From: Longimicrobiales bacterium
GTDB lineage: Bacteria > Gemmatimonadota > Gemmatimonadetes > Longimicrobiales > Gaopeijiaceae
Direction of reading: 5' to 3'
NCBI GenBank assembly: GCA_965249725.1
Contig: CBDFMQ010000002.1
Coordinates: 480,001 to 544,000 of the forward strand
Length of the DNA: 64,000 nt
Of the stretch, positions 14,570 through 19,756 are shown piece after piece. How positions within the stretch are numbered: the first letter of the stretch is position 1; every line of letters starts with the position of its first letter. The notes beneath the pieces were generated by a model that saw only the letters and a program-made list of their open reading frames with translations, did not search any database and was not told the DNA's origin. The translations under genes and the position numbers were made by a program.

Positions 14570-15367
14570 ATGCGCTGTTCTACCTGTGGTGAGCATCTAA
14601 GAGAGCACGAAACCGCTTGTCCCACGTGTGGGGTGGCGGTTTCGTCTCGCTCTATCGTGCGTCCGGTGGGGGTGGGCGTTCGGAATTGTCCTCGGTGCGC
14701 CTACGTCGGGAACGGAATCGAGTACTTCAAGCGGCCCGGACACATGGGTCTCCTCATCGGCGTTTCGCTCTTCACGTATGGACTGGGGGGACTGGCGTAC
14801 TGGCTGGCCCGCCGGAAACACCGCATCTGCCCGCAGTGTGGGCTCGGCTGGGAGAACGCGGCGGTGCTCGGACCCGGCCAGGGGCGTGCGCCTGCGTTGG
14901 CCGGGGTCACCGGTGCCGGTCCTCAATTCGGGGCGGATGAAGAGCTTCCCAGACGCGGACTCGCACGGAGAGTGATCGGTGTGGGCATGGTGCTCGCGGC
15001 GGCGCTGATGATTTCGGTCGGCTTCGTCAATTTCGAGTTGGCCGCCGTGGCCGTCGGGAGCGTGCTGGGTGCGGGCGGCACCGGCACCATTTGGTGGGGT
15101 CTCAAGGCCCGCCAGGATCGCCGGAATGCGCTCATGACGCGATTGCAGGGAAGCGTCCTACTCCTGGCCACCGAAAAGGGTGGAACGCTCACCGTGACCG
15201 AGGTAGCCGCCTCACTGAACCTGTCCTTGTCAGCTGCGGAGGGTGTGCTGGAAGGCATGGACGACGGGCTCAGGGTCCGGTCCGACGTGACCAACCAGGG
15301 CATCATCGTGTACGAGTTTCCCGAGGTCAGGCATCACCCCAGGCTCGAGTCGGGCTCGAAGAGCTAG
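14570..15367 (+). CDS. Membrane protein with zinc ribbons and a C-terminal winged-helix-like region
   Basis: Four CxxC motifs (CSTC, CPTC, CPRC, CPQC), hydrophobic segments and GGTLTVTEVAASLNLS. Confidence 0.65.
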   Translation: MRCSTCGEHLREHETACPTCGVAVSSRSIVRPVGVGVRNCPRCAYVGNGIEYFKRPGHMGLLIGVSLFTYGLGGLAYWLARRKHRICPQCGLGWENAAVLGPGQGRAPALAGVTGAGPQFGADEELPRRGLARRVIGVGMVLAAALMISVGFVNFELAAVAVGSVLGAGGTGTIWWGLKARQDRRNALMTRLQGSVLLLATEKGGTLTVTEVAASLNLSLSAAEGVLEGMDDGLRVRSDVTNQGIIVYEFPEVRHHPRLESGSKS

Positions 15368-16356
15368 ACCGGACCGTCCCCGGCCGCCGTGTATCCGGCG
15401 GACACCTCTTCCCTGGCTGTCGCCGCCCGGGCCAACCAAACGCCTCCGATGATGATCGCTGCGCCCGTCATCTGAAGAGCGGACGGTTCCTCACCAAGCC
15501 ACAACGCTGCGGTAATGAGCGCGACCACCGGGACCAGATTCGAGAATACCGACGTGCGTGCGCTGCCGATGTGCTCCAAACCGACGTTCCACAGCAAGTA
15601 GGCCACGGCAATGGCCAACACGCCCGCGTATGCGACCCCTGCCCAGGCCAGGGGCGAGACCGCGCGGAAGTCCATGCGCACGACCGCAGGGGCGCCGGCC
15701 ACGACGAGACCGAGGGTTCCGATCCACAGCGTCCAAGACGTCACAGCGAGGGCTCCGTAGCGACGCGTGAGATCCTGAGCTCCGACAGTGTAGACCGACC
15801 ACGTAACAGCGGCCGCCACCAGCAGTAGATCGCCTCGCGGCAGACCGTCGGAGTATCCCAAGGTACTGGCACCTCCCACGACCACGAATACCATGCCAGC
15901 CAGAGTCGCCAACACACCGATCCAGACGGCCACCGTATGCTGTTCCTGGCCCAACACGGTCGCGAGGACCAAGGTCCACACAGGCGTCGTTGCCAGAACG
16001 AGGCTGGCGTTGCCGGCAAGCGTGCCGTCGATGCCGAAGATGAACAGGAACTGATAGACCAGGTTGCCCAACAGGCCCAAGAGGACGATTCGGGCCCAAT
16101 GGGTCTTGTCCGGTATGGGGATGGGCCCGCGCCACCTCAACAGGGCGAACAACGTCGCGGCGGCGAGGGGAAATCGGAGGGCGTTGAACGCGAGGGGCTC
16201 GATTTCGAGCAGAGCCACCTTGATGACGGAGAAGTTCACTCCCCAGATGACACAAAGTGTTACGAGTCCGATGTCGATCCAGATTTCGGATCCGGTGACC
16301 GCGGAAGCAGGGGTTTGCGGCCCTCCGGGCCCATCACCTGCGGAATTGGGGGCCAT
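15364..16356 (-). CDS. DMT/EamA family transporter
   Basis: IWGVNFSVIK, about 10 TM segments, and NLVPVVA...LGE in the second EamA repeat. Confidence 0.92.
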   Translation of the reverse strand: MAPNSAGDGPGGPQTPASAVTGSEIWIDIGLVTLCVIWGVNFSVIKVALLEIEPLAFNALRFPLAAATLFALLRWRGPIPIPDKTHWARIVLLGLLGNLVYQFLFIFGIDGTLAGNASLVLATTPVWTLVLATVLGQEQHTVAVWIGVLATLAGMVFVVVGGASTLGYSDGLPRGDLLLVAAAVTWSVYTVGAQDLTRRYGALAVTSWTLWIGTLGLVVAGAPAVVRMDFRAVSPLAWAGVAYAGVLAIAVAYLLWNVGLEHIGSARTSVFSNLVPVVALITAALWLGEEPSALQMTGAAIIIGGVWLARAATAREEVSAGYTAAGDGPV

Positions 16357-16476: not shown

Positions 16477-18300
16477 ATGCCCACTTCGAACGTCCCACGC
16501 CTTGAAGACTACCGCAGCGGGCGGGCAAAACGGTCTGAGCAGACCGCGGCGCTTTACCGAGGAGATCCCGCACGGTCTTGCCTTTTGGGGCATCTTGCCT
16601 CGGCGCAAGAGTTGGTGGGGGCCGATCGGGCCGCTGTGGTATGGGTCGACGAGTATGGCCCAGGCTTGGTTCACGTCCATTGCCTACTCGATCTCGTAGG
16701 GAACCCTCCGCGACGCGATTCTGTAGCCCAGGCGTGCAGGGTAGCCTGGGGCAAGGGTGTGCCCGGTCTCCTCGATGTGCCGGACGTAGAGCGCGGCGGT
16801 GGAATCCCCATATCCGGGGTCCGCAGCTCTTGCTGCGTTGCGATGGGAAGCGATGGGACCCGCGCGTGGTTCCTGGTGGTCGACTCCCTGACACCTCGAT
16901 CGTGCTTGGCGGTCGAGGTCACCGACGAATTGATGTTCGTTGCGGGTGAAGCCGCTGCGGTGGTTCTCCATCAGGATCTGGACCGCAAGGCCACTGGCCC
17001 GAGGCGATTCGGAAAGAGTGCCAGTCCGGAGGCCGGTGAGACCTTCTCGGGATGGGCGATCCTCAAGGACCTCGACGGTCGTGAGGCGGACGCCGAAACG
17101 AATCGCCGCATCGCTACGCGCTTCCTCGTCGCACGTGCGGTGCGCTCCGCTCTGGACGAGGAGCTCACCATGGATCCCGAGGCTCTTCGGCAGCAGGTCG
17201 AAGGAGTGGGGCGTGAGCTCGACGCGGTAGAGCGGGGCGATCCCGAACGCACGGCCTGGGGAGAGGTCCTAGAGGCTCTCGGCTCCGGGGACGGGGTCGA
17301 GCTTGGACGTTCTCTCCTCGAGTTGGCGGATCGCGTGGACATGCTCGGGCACCTGCATGGGTCCCGCGAGCTGTGCAGTCTCGCCTACCAGGTAGCCGTG
17401 ACCTGTGGGTCTGGTGCGATCGCCGGTACCGCGGCCCGCTTCCTGGGTAGAACGCATCGGCGGCTCGGGGCGTGGGAGGACAGCGAAACTTGGTACGGCG
17501 TAGCCCAAAACCTGGGCGAGGCGCTCGGCGACGGGAGGCTCTCGGCTCTGGCCACGAACGGTCTTGGGAGCACCAGCCGCGAGAAGGGCAACCTGCCGCG
17601 GGCTCTCGAGCTGCACACCGAGACTCTGCAATGGGGCGTCGAGGACGGGGACCGCTACATCCAGGGGCTCAGTCATCACGATCTGATGACGGACCAGAAG
17701 CTGTCAGGGCGTTTCGGAGACGCGATTCGGCATGGCTGGGAGGCGGTTCGCCTCTATCCATCCGAGCGAGACCAGCTGCAGGCCCTCACCGACCTGGCAT
17801 GGGCGTTCGTCGAGGTGGGCGAGTACGGAGCTGCCGAGGATGCCTACACCGTGGTGGCGCATCGCACGCAGGACTTCAGATATCGGGTGTATGCGCTCGA
17901 CGCCCTGGCGTATATCGAGGCTCTCCTCGGGAGACGCGAACAGTTCGAGGATCGTATCCAGGCGGTTGACGAAACCCCCTGGAGGACCGGACAGCCCTTC
18001 ATGGTCTCGGAGCTACTCTACTACCGAGGCAAGGCGTACGGCCTTTTGGGCGACGTCGAACTGGCACAGCGTTGGCTTGCGGAGGCGAAAGCCTACTCCG
18101 AAGAACACGGCAACAACCAGATTTCATTCCAGGCGGAGACGGCCCTCGAAGCCCTCGAGTCTGGAGAACTCACGGATGAGGACGCGAGCGGCCGCGCCGA
18201 GCCCGTATCGCTCGACGATATCGATGGCGTCCGCACCGAGCTGAGCTCGATGCGGGGCCAGTTGGTTACAGCAGGTGGAGCGGAGGTACCGGCTACTTAG
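16477..18300 (+). CDS. Cytoplasmic protein with an N-terminal GAF-like region and C-terminal tetratricopeptide repeats
   Basis: LVGADRAAVVW...GVRSSCCVAM GAF-like pattern; TPR-like units (LGRTHRRLGAWEDSETWY, LGSTSREKGNLPRALELH, LAWAFVEVGEYGAAEDAY, GKAYGLLGDVELAQRWL); no signal peptide. Confidence 0.75.
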   Translation: MPTSNVPRLEDYRSGRAKRSEQTAALYRGDPARSCLLGHLASAQELVGADRAAVVWVDEYGPGLVHVHCLLDLVGNPPRRDSVAQACRVAWGKGVPGLLDVPDVERGGGIPISGVRSSCCVAMGSDGTRAWFLVVDSLTPRSCLAVEVTDELMFVAGEAAAVVLHQDLDRKATGPRRFGKSASPEAGETFSGWAILKDLDGREADAETNRRIATRFLVARAVRSALDEELTMDPEALRQQVEGVGRELDAVERGDPERTAWGEVLEALGSGDGVELGRSLLELADRVDMLGHLHGSRELCSLAYQVAVTCGSGAIAGTAARFLGRTHRRLGAWEDSETWYGVAQNLGEALGDGRLSALATNGLGSTSREKGNLPRALELHTETLQWGVEDGDRYIQGLSHHDLMTDQKLSGRFGDAIRHGWEAVRLYPSERDQLQALTDLAWAFVEVGEYGAAEDAYTVVAHRTQDFRYRVYALDALAYIEALLGRREQFEDRIQAVDETPWRTGQPFMVSELLYYRGKAYGLLGDVELAQRWLAEAKAYSEEHGNNQISFQAETALEALESGELTDEDASGRAEPVSLDDIDGVRTELSSMRGQLVTAGGAEVPAT

Positions 18301-18536
18301 CCGTTGCCGCCCGGATTGTGCCCGTTACCACCGGGGTTATGTCCGTTGCCACCAGGATTATGCCCGTTGCCACCAGGATTATGCCCGTTGCCGCCGGGGT
18401 TATGGCCGTTGCCGCCAGGATTGTGAGTCTGGCAGAGGCTGTCACCGGCTGCGCAGTCCAGGCCTGCGGGCGATGAGCAGGCGCTCAGGGCGAACGAAAG
18501 GGCGGCGACGGCGAAACAGAGGCGAAGCTTGGTCAT
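18297..18536 (-). CDS. 79-aa lipoprotein / candidate peptide precursor with six C-terminal HNPGGNG repeats
   Basis: AAGGAA RBS upstream of ATG 18536; signal peptide with lipobox LSAC (Cys20); repeat copies differ only at synonymous positions. Confidence 0.85.
   Translation of the reverse strand: MTKLRLCFAVAALSFALSACSSPAGLDCAAGDSLCQTHNPGGNGHNPGGNGHNPGGNGHNPGGNGHNPGGNGHNPGGNG
18300..18425 (-). repeat. 6 x 21-bp coding tandem repeat (HNPGGNG)
   Basis: Units at 18300, 18321, 18342, 18363, 18384 and 18405; minus-strand consensus CAY AAY CCN GGY GGY AAC GGN. Confidence 0.97.
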
Positions 18537-18668
18537 CAAACCAGTTTCCTTCCAGAAGAGAGACTCTGGCTGGGGAGTACGGTACGTCATAGCTTGGTTG
18601 TAAGGTGGATGCGGCATCTTTGGGTGCCGCAATCCTTTCCGACTAGGGGTATACCTTTTCCGAAGGTC

Positions 18669-19472
18669 ATGGCACTAGTAAGCACGTTTACACGGGATCC
18701 GGAGGTTCAGGCGGGCCTCCGAGAGGCGCTCTCGACCGTGCACGACGTCGCCGAGTCCAGGACGCTCGGATGGCTCGCGCTGTCGCTGCGAGAGCGTCCT
18801 GTGAGCGTGTGTATGATCGATTTGGCGTCGATGGGATGGGGTCCGGGCGGACTCGAGCGACTGTTGAGGGTGCGACGCCAGTTTCCGAGCGTCGGGTTCG
18901 TGCTTCTGGCGGGAGCCAAAGAGGATCCCCGGACGCTTTTCGAGGTGGGTCGCCTCGGTTTTCGGAGTCTGGTGGTGCTGAACACCGAGAATCAGGCGTG
19001 GCGGCTGCGCCGAAGCGTGGACAAGGCCCAGGAGAGGGGCGTGACGTCGCGTGTACTCCGCGAGGTGAGCCCCGAGATTGCGCCGCGCGAAACCAAGGCG
19101 CTCCGGCTGGTACTGGACGAGGTCCACAAGTGCTGGTCCGCCGAGGCCTTTTCCGACCTCATGGGCTTGTCCCGTCCCTTCCTGAGCGTCTGTCTGAAGA
19201 GGTCGGGCCTGCCGGCCATCGGACGTCTCCTCGTGTGGTCGAGACTCCTCCATGCCGGCAACTGGCTGGGAGATCCCGGACGGACGGGACAGAGTGTCAG
19301 CCGGCAGCTGGAGTACTCGTCCGGCGCGGCCTTCCGAAGGGCGCTGAAGAGCTACACCGGCGCCACGCCCACCACGGTGGCTTCGCATGGAGGTCTGACC
19401 TTCGTGCTCAGGCACTTTCTGCACGATTGCGGGTTTGAGACTCCGGCCACACCACGCATCTCCGTGGCTTGA
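18669..19472 (+). CDS. AraC-family transcriptional regulator with a degenerate receiver-like N-terminal domain
   Basis: C-terminal double HTH (SAEAFSDLMGLS...VSRQLEYSSGAAFRRALKSYTGATP); N-terminal PVSVCMIDL and FPSVGFVLLA resemble receiver strands beta3 and beta4. Confidence 0.85.
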   Translation: MALVSTFTRDPEVQAGLREALSTVHDVAESRTLGWLALSLRERPVSVCMIDLASMGWGPGGLERLLRVRRQFPSVGFVLLAGAKEDPRTLFEVGRLGFRSLVVLNTENQAWRLRRSVDKAQERGVTSRVLREVSPEIAPRETKALRLVLDEVHKCWSAEAFSDLMGLSRPFLSVCLKRSGLPAIGRLLVWSRLLHAGNWLGDPGRTGQSVSRQLEYSSGAAFRRALKSYTGATPTTVASHGGLTFVLRHFLHDCGFETPATPRISVA

Positions 19473-19519: not shown

Positions 19520-19756
19520 ATGACTGAATTCCTGGACGAATCAGGACGCGCCTGGGTGGCGACCGTACGATCGGAGTCGGGTACGGACTACAAGGGCCGC
19601 TACTACCTGTACCTCGCGGAAGAAGGTGCGACCGACGCCGGAGTCAGCCTTCTGGACGTGCGGTGGAACAGCCCGGGCACGGCGGAACGAGCGCTCTCCA
19701 CGATGTCCGACGTCGAGTTGCGCAGGCGACTACGGTCAGCCCTGGGACGGGCCTAA
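19520..19756 (+). CDS. Small hypothetical protein (78 aa)
   Basis: Clean ORF filling the gap between AraC and dacB; protein-like composition. Confidence 0.65.
   Translation: MTEFLDESGRAWVATVRSESGTDYKGRYYLYLAEEGATDAGVSLLDVRWNSPGTAERALSTMSDVELRRRLRSALGRA

Follow-up and report, generated by a model that had tools for sequence, protein, structure and literature searches.

We analysed 64,000 nucleotides from a Longimicrobiales bacterium (contig CBDFMQ010000002.1, positions 480,001 to 544,000 of the forward strand; this whole stretch is called the window below) and concentrated on three adjacent genes. They encode a tetratricopeptide repeat (TPR) protein, a small lipoprotein precursor ending in six copies of the heptapeptide HNPGGNG, and an AraC-family regulator. 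We propose that the TPR protein reads the heptapeptide and that the three genes would form a signalling circuit resembling the Rap/Phr systems. In window coordinates, the genes are the following.

16477..18300, plus strand: TPR gene, 607 aa, a cytoplasmic protein with GAF-like, helical and TPR parts, putative peptide receptor
18297..18536, minus strand: peptide gene, a 79-aa pre-lipoprotein with signal peptide, lipobox Cys20, a linker with a Cys-Cys loop and six HNPGGNG units
18669..19472, plus strand: AraC-family gene, 267 aa, with a degenerate receiver-like N-terminal domain

The stop codons of the convergent TPR and peptide genes share 4 nt, and the start of the peptide gene is separated from the AraC gene by 132 bp (18537-18668). 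Coordinates and translations confirmed the first-pass annotation, which had described three tightly linked genes with a convergent peptide gene and a divergent gap of this size. The locus is covered in contigs of four runs from three studies with no insertions or deletions listed, one run possibly being the source; no RNA data set was listed as holding it. The three-gene cassette is real and widespread. Pfam and NCBIfam gave its proteins only generic names or names below threshold, and no account of it was found in the literature searched, in which subscription papers were mostly outside reach.

The peptide precursor and its conserved neighbourhood

The 79-residue precursor begins with a basic and hydrophobic signal peptide and a lipobox recognised by pattern (LSAC, Cys20), which predicts Sec export with cleavage by signal peptidase II (Sec/SPII). 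A linker with two cysteines follows, and the six repeated units, already read from the bare sequence, run flush with the stop codon.

18300..18425, minus strand: six heptapeptide units HNPGGNG, whose copies differ at synonymous sites only

When the genome was scanned for tandem arrays of 5-12-aa units flush with the stop of a signal-peptide open reading frame (ORF), (HNPGGNG)x6 was the sole hit. Precursors of the closest homologues (subfamily A) follow the unit pattern [HYIG]-x-[PLI]-[GD]-[SPGAT]-[GN]-[NGSA], and 74 precursors contained 53 different units. Copy number ranged from 1 to 10, a single copy being present in 9 of 93. Comparison of the unit copies within 84 loci gave 426 synonymous and 13 non-synonymous variant codons, a count in which the unit filter favours similar copies; judged by these codons, the units are under selection. 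A motif placed right after the lipidated cysteine was found in 88/93 precursors versus 6/86 ordinary lipoproteins of the same genome, with a pattern that was defined after inspection of the data. Cys-Cys loops occur in 28/93 precursors. The motif itself lies between two cysteines in L088, L222, L237, L246, L262-L264, L266 and L313, which suggests that such Cys-flanked motifs are cyclic disulfide signals. Two tandem precursor genes were seen in L222 and L260. The host genome encodes signal peptidase II and three peptide-binding-protein loci, two of them with permease genes (ATP-binding cassette clusters of the Opp/Dpp type).

Subfamily A (A1) comprises the proteins with both GAF-like and TPR parts, and its profile matched 105 of 301 family genomes. 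Neighbouring genes were scored at 78 TPR genes that were distinct, complete and followed by at least 450 bp of sequence; one of them is a paralogue from the source genome. A convergent small lipobox ORF followed in 77 of the 78 by pattern and in the last one by inspection; the background of the detector was 21 among 1401 long ORFs of the source genome. The AraC gene lay downstream in 67 of the 68 loci with at least 900 bp available, the miss being the source-genome paralogue. A second batch of 45 genome loci, 2 of them too short and a few being duplicate metagenome loci, gave the peptide gene at 42/43 and the start of the AraC gene at 43/43 subfamily-A loci. The recurrent linkage that the first-pass annotation had asked to see was therefore found, and it extends to AraC genes at 18/18 loci of subfamily B.

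Subfamily B proteins (HHalign probability 100) have about 430 aa and no GAF-like domain, and their AraC gene lies 0-7 nt upstream of the TPR gene in all 18 loci. Subfamily C (HHalign probability 99.7) is of the same length, likewise without GAF, and has the layout of the window; a search with its profile and an E limit of 1e-30 returned 1078 clusters at 50% identity, listed without taxonomy. Two genomes of the related genus g26 carry 15 strong subfamily-C paralogues each, of which 9 and 10 have their own peptide gene. The g26 peptides mostly end in G-x-hydrophobic-G-S-G-x, several with 2-4 spaced copies. A fourth group, including the source-genome paralogue, showed a convergent lipobox ORF at 8/11 further loci and AraC at 0/11, and family f8 of another order has two loci with all three genes, one with a duplicated unit. 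In the phylum-level sample the subfamily-C profile matched only 10/301 genomes, and the family is therefore patchy and centred on this order. The host belongs to the Gemmatimonadota, as does the Atlas cluster, and is neither a member of the Bacillota nor a Bacillota mobile element; a phage search with one subfamily-C TPR protein gave no match.

Several variants of the cassette were observed. The source-genome paralogue (L032:5125-6922; G000 C3, about 2921100-2922900) is another TPR gene, whose GAF-like part is degenerate; the small lipoprotein convergent with it terminates in a Cys-flanked loop, and the locus has a receiver-domain gene nearby but no AraC gene. Two receptor units are fused in one protein in P0127, P0128, P0151, P0187, P0197 and P0218. 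Peptide-less subfamily-C receptors with their groove residues kept (L153, L154, L158, L170, L316) may answer to peptides encoded elsewhere. Broken copies were seen at L186, L184 and G375, namely a TPR gene with an internal stop, a split AraC gene, and a TPR gene divided into three pieces; they could reflect errors of assembly or variants blind to the signal.

The surroundings of subfamily A are fixed as well, with an EamA gene at 29/43 loci, a zinc-ribbon gene at 17/17, a 78-aa gene at 36/44 and dacB at 21/27. In the window, the 78-aa ORF (19520-19756, plus strand) lies downstream of AraC, belongs to no family, and might be either a target of AraC or a fourth part of the cassette. The EamA transporter gene (15364-16356, minus strand), divergent from the TPR gene, and the gene of the zinc-ribbon membrane protein (14570-15367, plus strand) may reflect plain synteny.

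The TPR protein and co-variation of its groove with the peptide

Pfam assigned TPR_12 to the 607-residue protein above the cut-off (E 6e-9), and no hydrophobic segment was detected (maximum 19-residue hydropathy 1.34). An AlphaFold model (predicted local distance difference test score 81) ordered the chain into a GAF-like domain (9-169), a disordered linker, three helices (193-270), a TPR superhelix (273-562) and a tail helix. Residues 9-169 are modelled as helix-helix-strand-strand-helix-three strands-helix, and the Atlas feature match to a GAF cluster was 0.90. Thus, of the GAF-TPR label given on first pass, the TPR half stands on Pfam, and the GAF half, which found no Pfam match, is carried by the model and the Atlas match. 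The GAF-like domain is limited to subfamily A.

16501..16983, plus strand: GAF-like domain, aa 9-169, from model secondary structure and the Atlas match of 0.90
17293..18162, plus strand: TPR superhelix, aa 273-562, seven repeats and a capping helix, with groove positions that co-change with the peptide
17458..17460, plus strand: Arg328 (TPR2 position 12), invariant in 93/93, candidate anchor residue
17899..17901, plus strand: Asp475 (TPR6 position 5), predicted to read residue 1 of the peptide

Receptor and peptide were then compared in 93 natural pairs. From 82 initial pairs, 8 off the unit pattern were dropped and the remainder was thinned to 85% identity, leaving 68; 42 further pairs, minus 7 without a unit and 10 redundant ones, contributed 25. 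Where peptide position 1 is His or Tyr, residue 475 was always Asp (82/82 pairs), and in the remaining pairs it was always another residue (11/11). The rule had been drawn from the first 68 pairs and was true for 25/25 pairs added later. Six of the seven changes at residue 475 share branches with changes at peptide position 1, where 1.0 was expected (family-wise p 0.003 over columns, about 0.02 over the seven peptide positions). A congener with an 80% identical TPR protein carries a single LAPGGNG unit together with D475Q and Y516N. Co-change was also detected between L398 and peptide position 7 (p 0.034). Subfamily-C receptors have no Asp at the site aligned to 475, and their units mostly begin with Gly.

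Ligand-contacting TPR positions were taken as 2, 5, 6, 9, 12 and 13, as derived from HOP structures in passages of PMC1261162. The 32 variable groove columns defined in this way co-changed with the peptide more strongly than 185 other TPR columns in a tree-aware test (summed z 3.29 vs 0.73, p 5e-5; max z p 4e-4), a test that was chosen after hits had been noticed, with a tree that includes the tested columns and with columns that are not independent. As controls, columns shifted by 1-2 residues gave 0.6-1.3 and GAF columns -1.4. Groove columns also made up 10 of the 21 top columns by corrected mutual information, though only 33 of 556 columns lie in the groove; raw mutual information without the tree was not relied upon. 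The covariation between repeat sequence and TPR pocket that had been named as a check was thus recovered. Peptide position 1 mapped to TPR6/7, position 3 to TPR6, position 4 to TPR5, position 5 to TPR3 and position 7 to TPR4, which suggests an extended peptide running antiparallel to the repeat order. Taken together, the TPR protein very probably binds the peptide, and the receptor-peptide pairing is well supported by sequence evidence.

Pocket decay was considered in subfamily B, where G371-N372-P374 is lost in 16/16 peptide-less proteins. N372 (TPR position 16) is probably a helix cap and the loci may represent few events, and the loss is therefore read as relaxed selection only.

A fold search with the TPR model ranked eukaryotic LGN first (Z 24.9), followed by MalT domain III (21.5), Rap pLS20 and RapH (both 21.4), RapI (20.8), Rap105 (20.7), NprR (18.4) and PlcR (17.0). 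Because identity to the Raps is 10-13% and LGN scores higher, we do not claim common ancestry with them. The profile gave weak sequence matches to NprR (E 1e-4 to 3e-4) and Rap pLS20 (E 1e-3), and a subfamily-B protein matched AimR weakly (E 0.05); all of these rank under generic TPR proteins.

The AraC-family regulator and the intergenic boxes

The 267-residue protein matched Pfam HTH_18 below the cut-off (E 2e-6), and its profile hit AdpA (E 3e-4), VirS (5e-4), SoxS (6e-3) and GadX. By these matches its C-terminal part is a double helix-turn-helix of the AraC/XylS type. The N-terminal 125 residues show a receiver-like pattern, with strands assigned by sequence pattern and Asp51 at least 90% conserved. 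Among 43 aligned AraC proteins, no conserved Lys after strand 5 and no conserved Thr/Ser at the expected places was found. Further support for a receiver was weak (match of the profile to HupR1 at E 0.2, Atlas CheY-like lead 0.83), and by its sequence the domain is not that of a canonical response regulator. Of the receiver-AraC label proposed earlier, the AraC part therefore stands and the receiver part is kept as a weak assignment.

Three elements were recognised in the 132-bp gap.

18647..18668, minus strand: box 1, consensus GATCTTCGRAAAAGRYATACC, abutting the AraC ATG, putative strong AraC half-site
18628..18638, minus strand: box 2, AAATGATnCnA, a partial repeat of box 1 with a 21-bp period, putative weak half-site over the -35
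18602..18607, minus strand: xAxxTT element whose spacing to the boxes is constant, putative -10 of the peptide gene

Box 1 (21 nt), followed by box 2 and the xAxxTT element, is present in 62/62 aligned loci. In the xAxxTT element, A and T are each conserved in 58/62; the element is near-symmetric and could read on either strand. A scan for consensus sigma-70 promoters found none. AraC proteins activate from tandem half-sites at a 21-bp period, the second of which lies over the -35 region. Because the boxes match this geometry, they suggest that AraC drives the peptide gene and limits itself, with AraC as the presumed binder. The conserved box fits the idea, already raised on first pass, that the regulator may drive the peptide gene. 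Box 1 occurs once in the source genome, with a score of 38 versus 15 for the next match. A scan of 121 family genomes matched 49, nearly all once, and the matches with 0-1 mismatch that could be placed against TPR loci all lie at the cassette. A further 35 loci, most of them belonging to subfamily B, subfamily C or f8, gave no match to the box. Two other explanations of the box were discarded: it is not a coding N-terminal extension of AraC, as the frame to the ATG varies, and it is not a hairpin, as judged by eye, since the pairs break in several loci.

Two further AraC loci were noted. A second receiver-like AraC family member (G000 C1:88841-89584, L034) has no TPR or peptide gene adjoining it. 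In the closest congener (L031:3891-5005), a 1.1-kb insertion sequence with 30-nt inverted ends and a 355-aa transposase-like ORF, which we take to be IS630-like, interrupts AraC just after its start, the TPR and peptide genes being intact.

A proposed circuit, its alternatives and known systems

Based on these observations, we propose a Rap/Phr-like peptide signalling circuit in a diderm bacterium, with a lipid-anchored multi-copy precursor, and put its probability at about 0.6. The small gene would give a Sec-exported lipoprotein, as signal peptide and lipobox indicate. Extracytoplasmic proteolysis would release as many as 10 units, each about 7 residues long, from one precursor and so amplify the signal. 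The peptide would re-enter its own or a neighbouring cell, probably by an Opp/Dpp transporter. It would then lie extended in the TPR groove, with its N-terminus at TPR6/7 and its C-terminus at TPR3/4, and the coevolution data point to groove residues as determinants of specificity. The TPR protein, which has no DNA-binding domain, may control AraC by contact with the degenerate receiver domain, as their linkage suggests; here, an anti-activator relieved by the peptide is slightly favoured over a peptide-dependent co-activator. AraC bound to the two half-sites would activate the peptide gene and probably repress itself, resulting in autoinduction. In subfamily A, the GAF domain might provide a second, small-molecule input. 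The weak links of this circuit are unit release, travel between cells and the TPR-AraC contact.

A number of results weigh against the circuit. In the pair analysis, D475 gave 5/5 independent pairs (sign-test p 0.0625), only D475 with position 1 and L398 with position 7 survive correction per position over the 93 pairs, and the association of N361 with peptide position 5 weakened from p 0.016 (68 pairs) to 0.34 (93 pairs). The ends of the units vary, C-terminal tails occur in some precursors, and the motif is in some cases internal or flanked by cysteines; going by these sequences, a free linear 7-mer is not universal. The lipid anchor opposes free diffusion unless a protease acts, and the cassette has no linked protease. 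Opp systems, being widespread, prove nothing specific. Adjacent peptide genes are absent from 16/18 subfamily-B TPR-AraC operons (2/18 have one) and from 12/35 subfamily-C loci (23/35 have one), and AraC follows the TPR gene at only 11/35 subfamily-C loci. The full box has no second copy in the source genome, nearly all matching family genomes have it once, and no regulon was identified from these scans.

Part of this evidence fits a self-sensing role, in which the TPR protein would bind the repeats on the precursor of its own cell once export or maturation of the lipoprotein is stalled, or on fragments from that cell's periplasm, and feed AraC as a sensor of envelope or secretion stress. No crossing of the outer membrane would be needed, and the lipid anchor, the internal or tailed motifs and the avidity of tandem copies would all be accommodated. 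Subfamily A, single-copy at a fixed site near dacB (21/27) and EamA (29/43), suits such a role as well, and the coevolution results fit it equally well. However, a housekeeping sensor would have no use for 53 units in 74 precursors or for 15 paralogues per genome with distinct peptides, and the Cys-Cys loops point to a role after export. We therefore consider self-sensing unlikely, though it is the best of the alternatives.

It is somewhat less likely still that the TPR-peptide pair signals with an output other than the adjacent AraC, so that the upstream AraC would merely drive the peptide gene and the TPR protein would act on other proteins. AraC is missing beside 24/35 subfamily-C TPR genes and at all 11 loci of the fourth subfamily, most f8 AraC homologues examined have no TPR neighbour, and no TPR-AraC fusion was present among the 150 best representatives. 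In contrast, AraC-TPR adjacency is kept in two gene orders, is translationally coupled in the 18/18 subfamily-B loci even where they are peptide-less, and is direct in the peptide-less locus L019; a receiver-like domain without the conserved Lys after strand 5 also suits control by a protein partner. That the small protein is no signal precursor at all, being instead a structural surface lipoprotein, a multi-core precursor of a ribosomally synthesized and post-translationally modified peptide (RiPP), or a toxin with a TPR chaperone or immunity protein, is improbable: the lipobox, the Gly/Pro/Asn-rich repeats and a weak NCBIfam resemblance of the TPR protein to the RiPP-cluster TPR HaaT (E 1e-6, 27 bits vs a cut-off of 1125) speak for it, but the 74 neighbours seen at 44 paralogous loci include no recurrent modifying enzyme, peptidase or exporter of the sort typical of a RiPP cluster, and the window has none either, one copy suffices in 9/93 precursors, and a cytoplasmic partner tied to a transcription factor appears to read the unit residue by residue.

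Gemmatimonadota are diderm bacteria that occur commonly in soils and sediments, and their signalling has received little study. If the Rap/Phr-like circuit is correct, the cassette family brings a diderm phylum into TPR-read peptide signalling or a convergent form of that mode. How a peptide from a lipid-anchored precursor would get across two membranes then becomes a concrete question. A broader reading, which we hold at slightly less than even odds, is that Gemmatimonadota independently evolved a large peptide language, with short kin-specific peptides from lipid-anchored multi-copy precursors, some as disulfide loops, that would cross two membranes, and TPR receptors in more than 1000 sequence clusters, up to 15 per genome, that would gate a dedicated family of pseudo-receiver AraC proteins; the receptor-peptide code would be partly readable from sequence, and the precursors might be displayed at the cell surface or carried in vesicles. 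More than 120 natural pairs in subfamily A and about 35 in subfamily C, with some redundancy, give exact predictions, for example for residue 475 versus peptide residue 1, and might be a source of orthogonal peptide switches to use in Gram-negative hosts.

Passages of PMC10075063 describe peptide signals read by intracellular TPR proteins as a trait of Bacillota, with small molecules used in Proteobacteria and Actinobacteria, and 'gemmatimonad' occurs 0 times in its main text. The RRNPP criteria given there are a propeptide of 10-100 aa, its export by Sec/SPI (strict) or Sec/SPII (relaxed), a receptor of 250-500 aa, TPRs in it, and gene adjacency (PMC10075063). The cassette agrees outright on three of the five (a propeptide of 79 aa, receptor TPRs, adjacency) and on export at the relaxed level (Sec/SPII, lipobox by pattern). 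At 607 aa the receptor exceeds the length range due to its GAF domain; subfamilies B and C, with about 430 aa, lie within it. Of the RRNPP analogy drawn in the first-pass annotation, linkage and covariation hold up, and homology to RRNPP receptors comes down to weak matches.

Among other TPR proteins, MalT domain III and LGN share only the superhelix and have no propeptide. The peptides of NprR/NprX, PlcR/PapR and AimR/AimP have 6-8 residues and are bound in the TPR groove. NprR, PlcR and AimR bind DNA themselves, whereas the DNA-binding protein of the cassette is a separate gene. The Enterococcus sex pheromones cCF10 and cAD1 are also derived from lipoproteins and act on an intracellular receptor; they are, however, cut from the signal peptide, and the repeated unit of the cassette lies in the mature C-terminal part.

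The closest likeness is with Rap/Phr of Bacillus. In both, the TPR receptor is cytoplasmic, lacks a DNA-binding domain and has a short helical region ahead of its repeats; the small propeptide encoded next to it carries an export signal and a short unit, either C-terminal or internal; and paralogues are numerous within a genome. The cassette differs in its diderm host, the Sec/SPII lipoprotein precursor with up to 10 copies, the convergent peptide gene, the additional GAF domain that brings the receptor to 607 aa, and its partner, an AraC protein whose receiver domain is degenerate. Phr-type pheromone units are themselves tandemly duplicated in 1-4 copies, according to passages of PMC11343458. 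In RapF, the late-TPR residue Glu303 reads peptide position 1, as described in parts of PMC3601957, and Asp475, likewise late in the TPR superhelix, is predicted to read the same position here.

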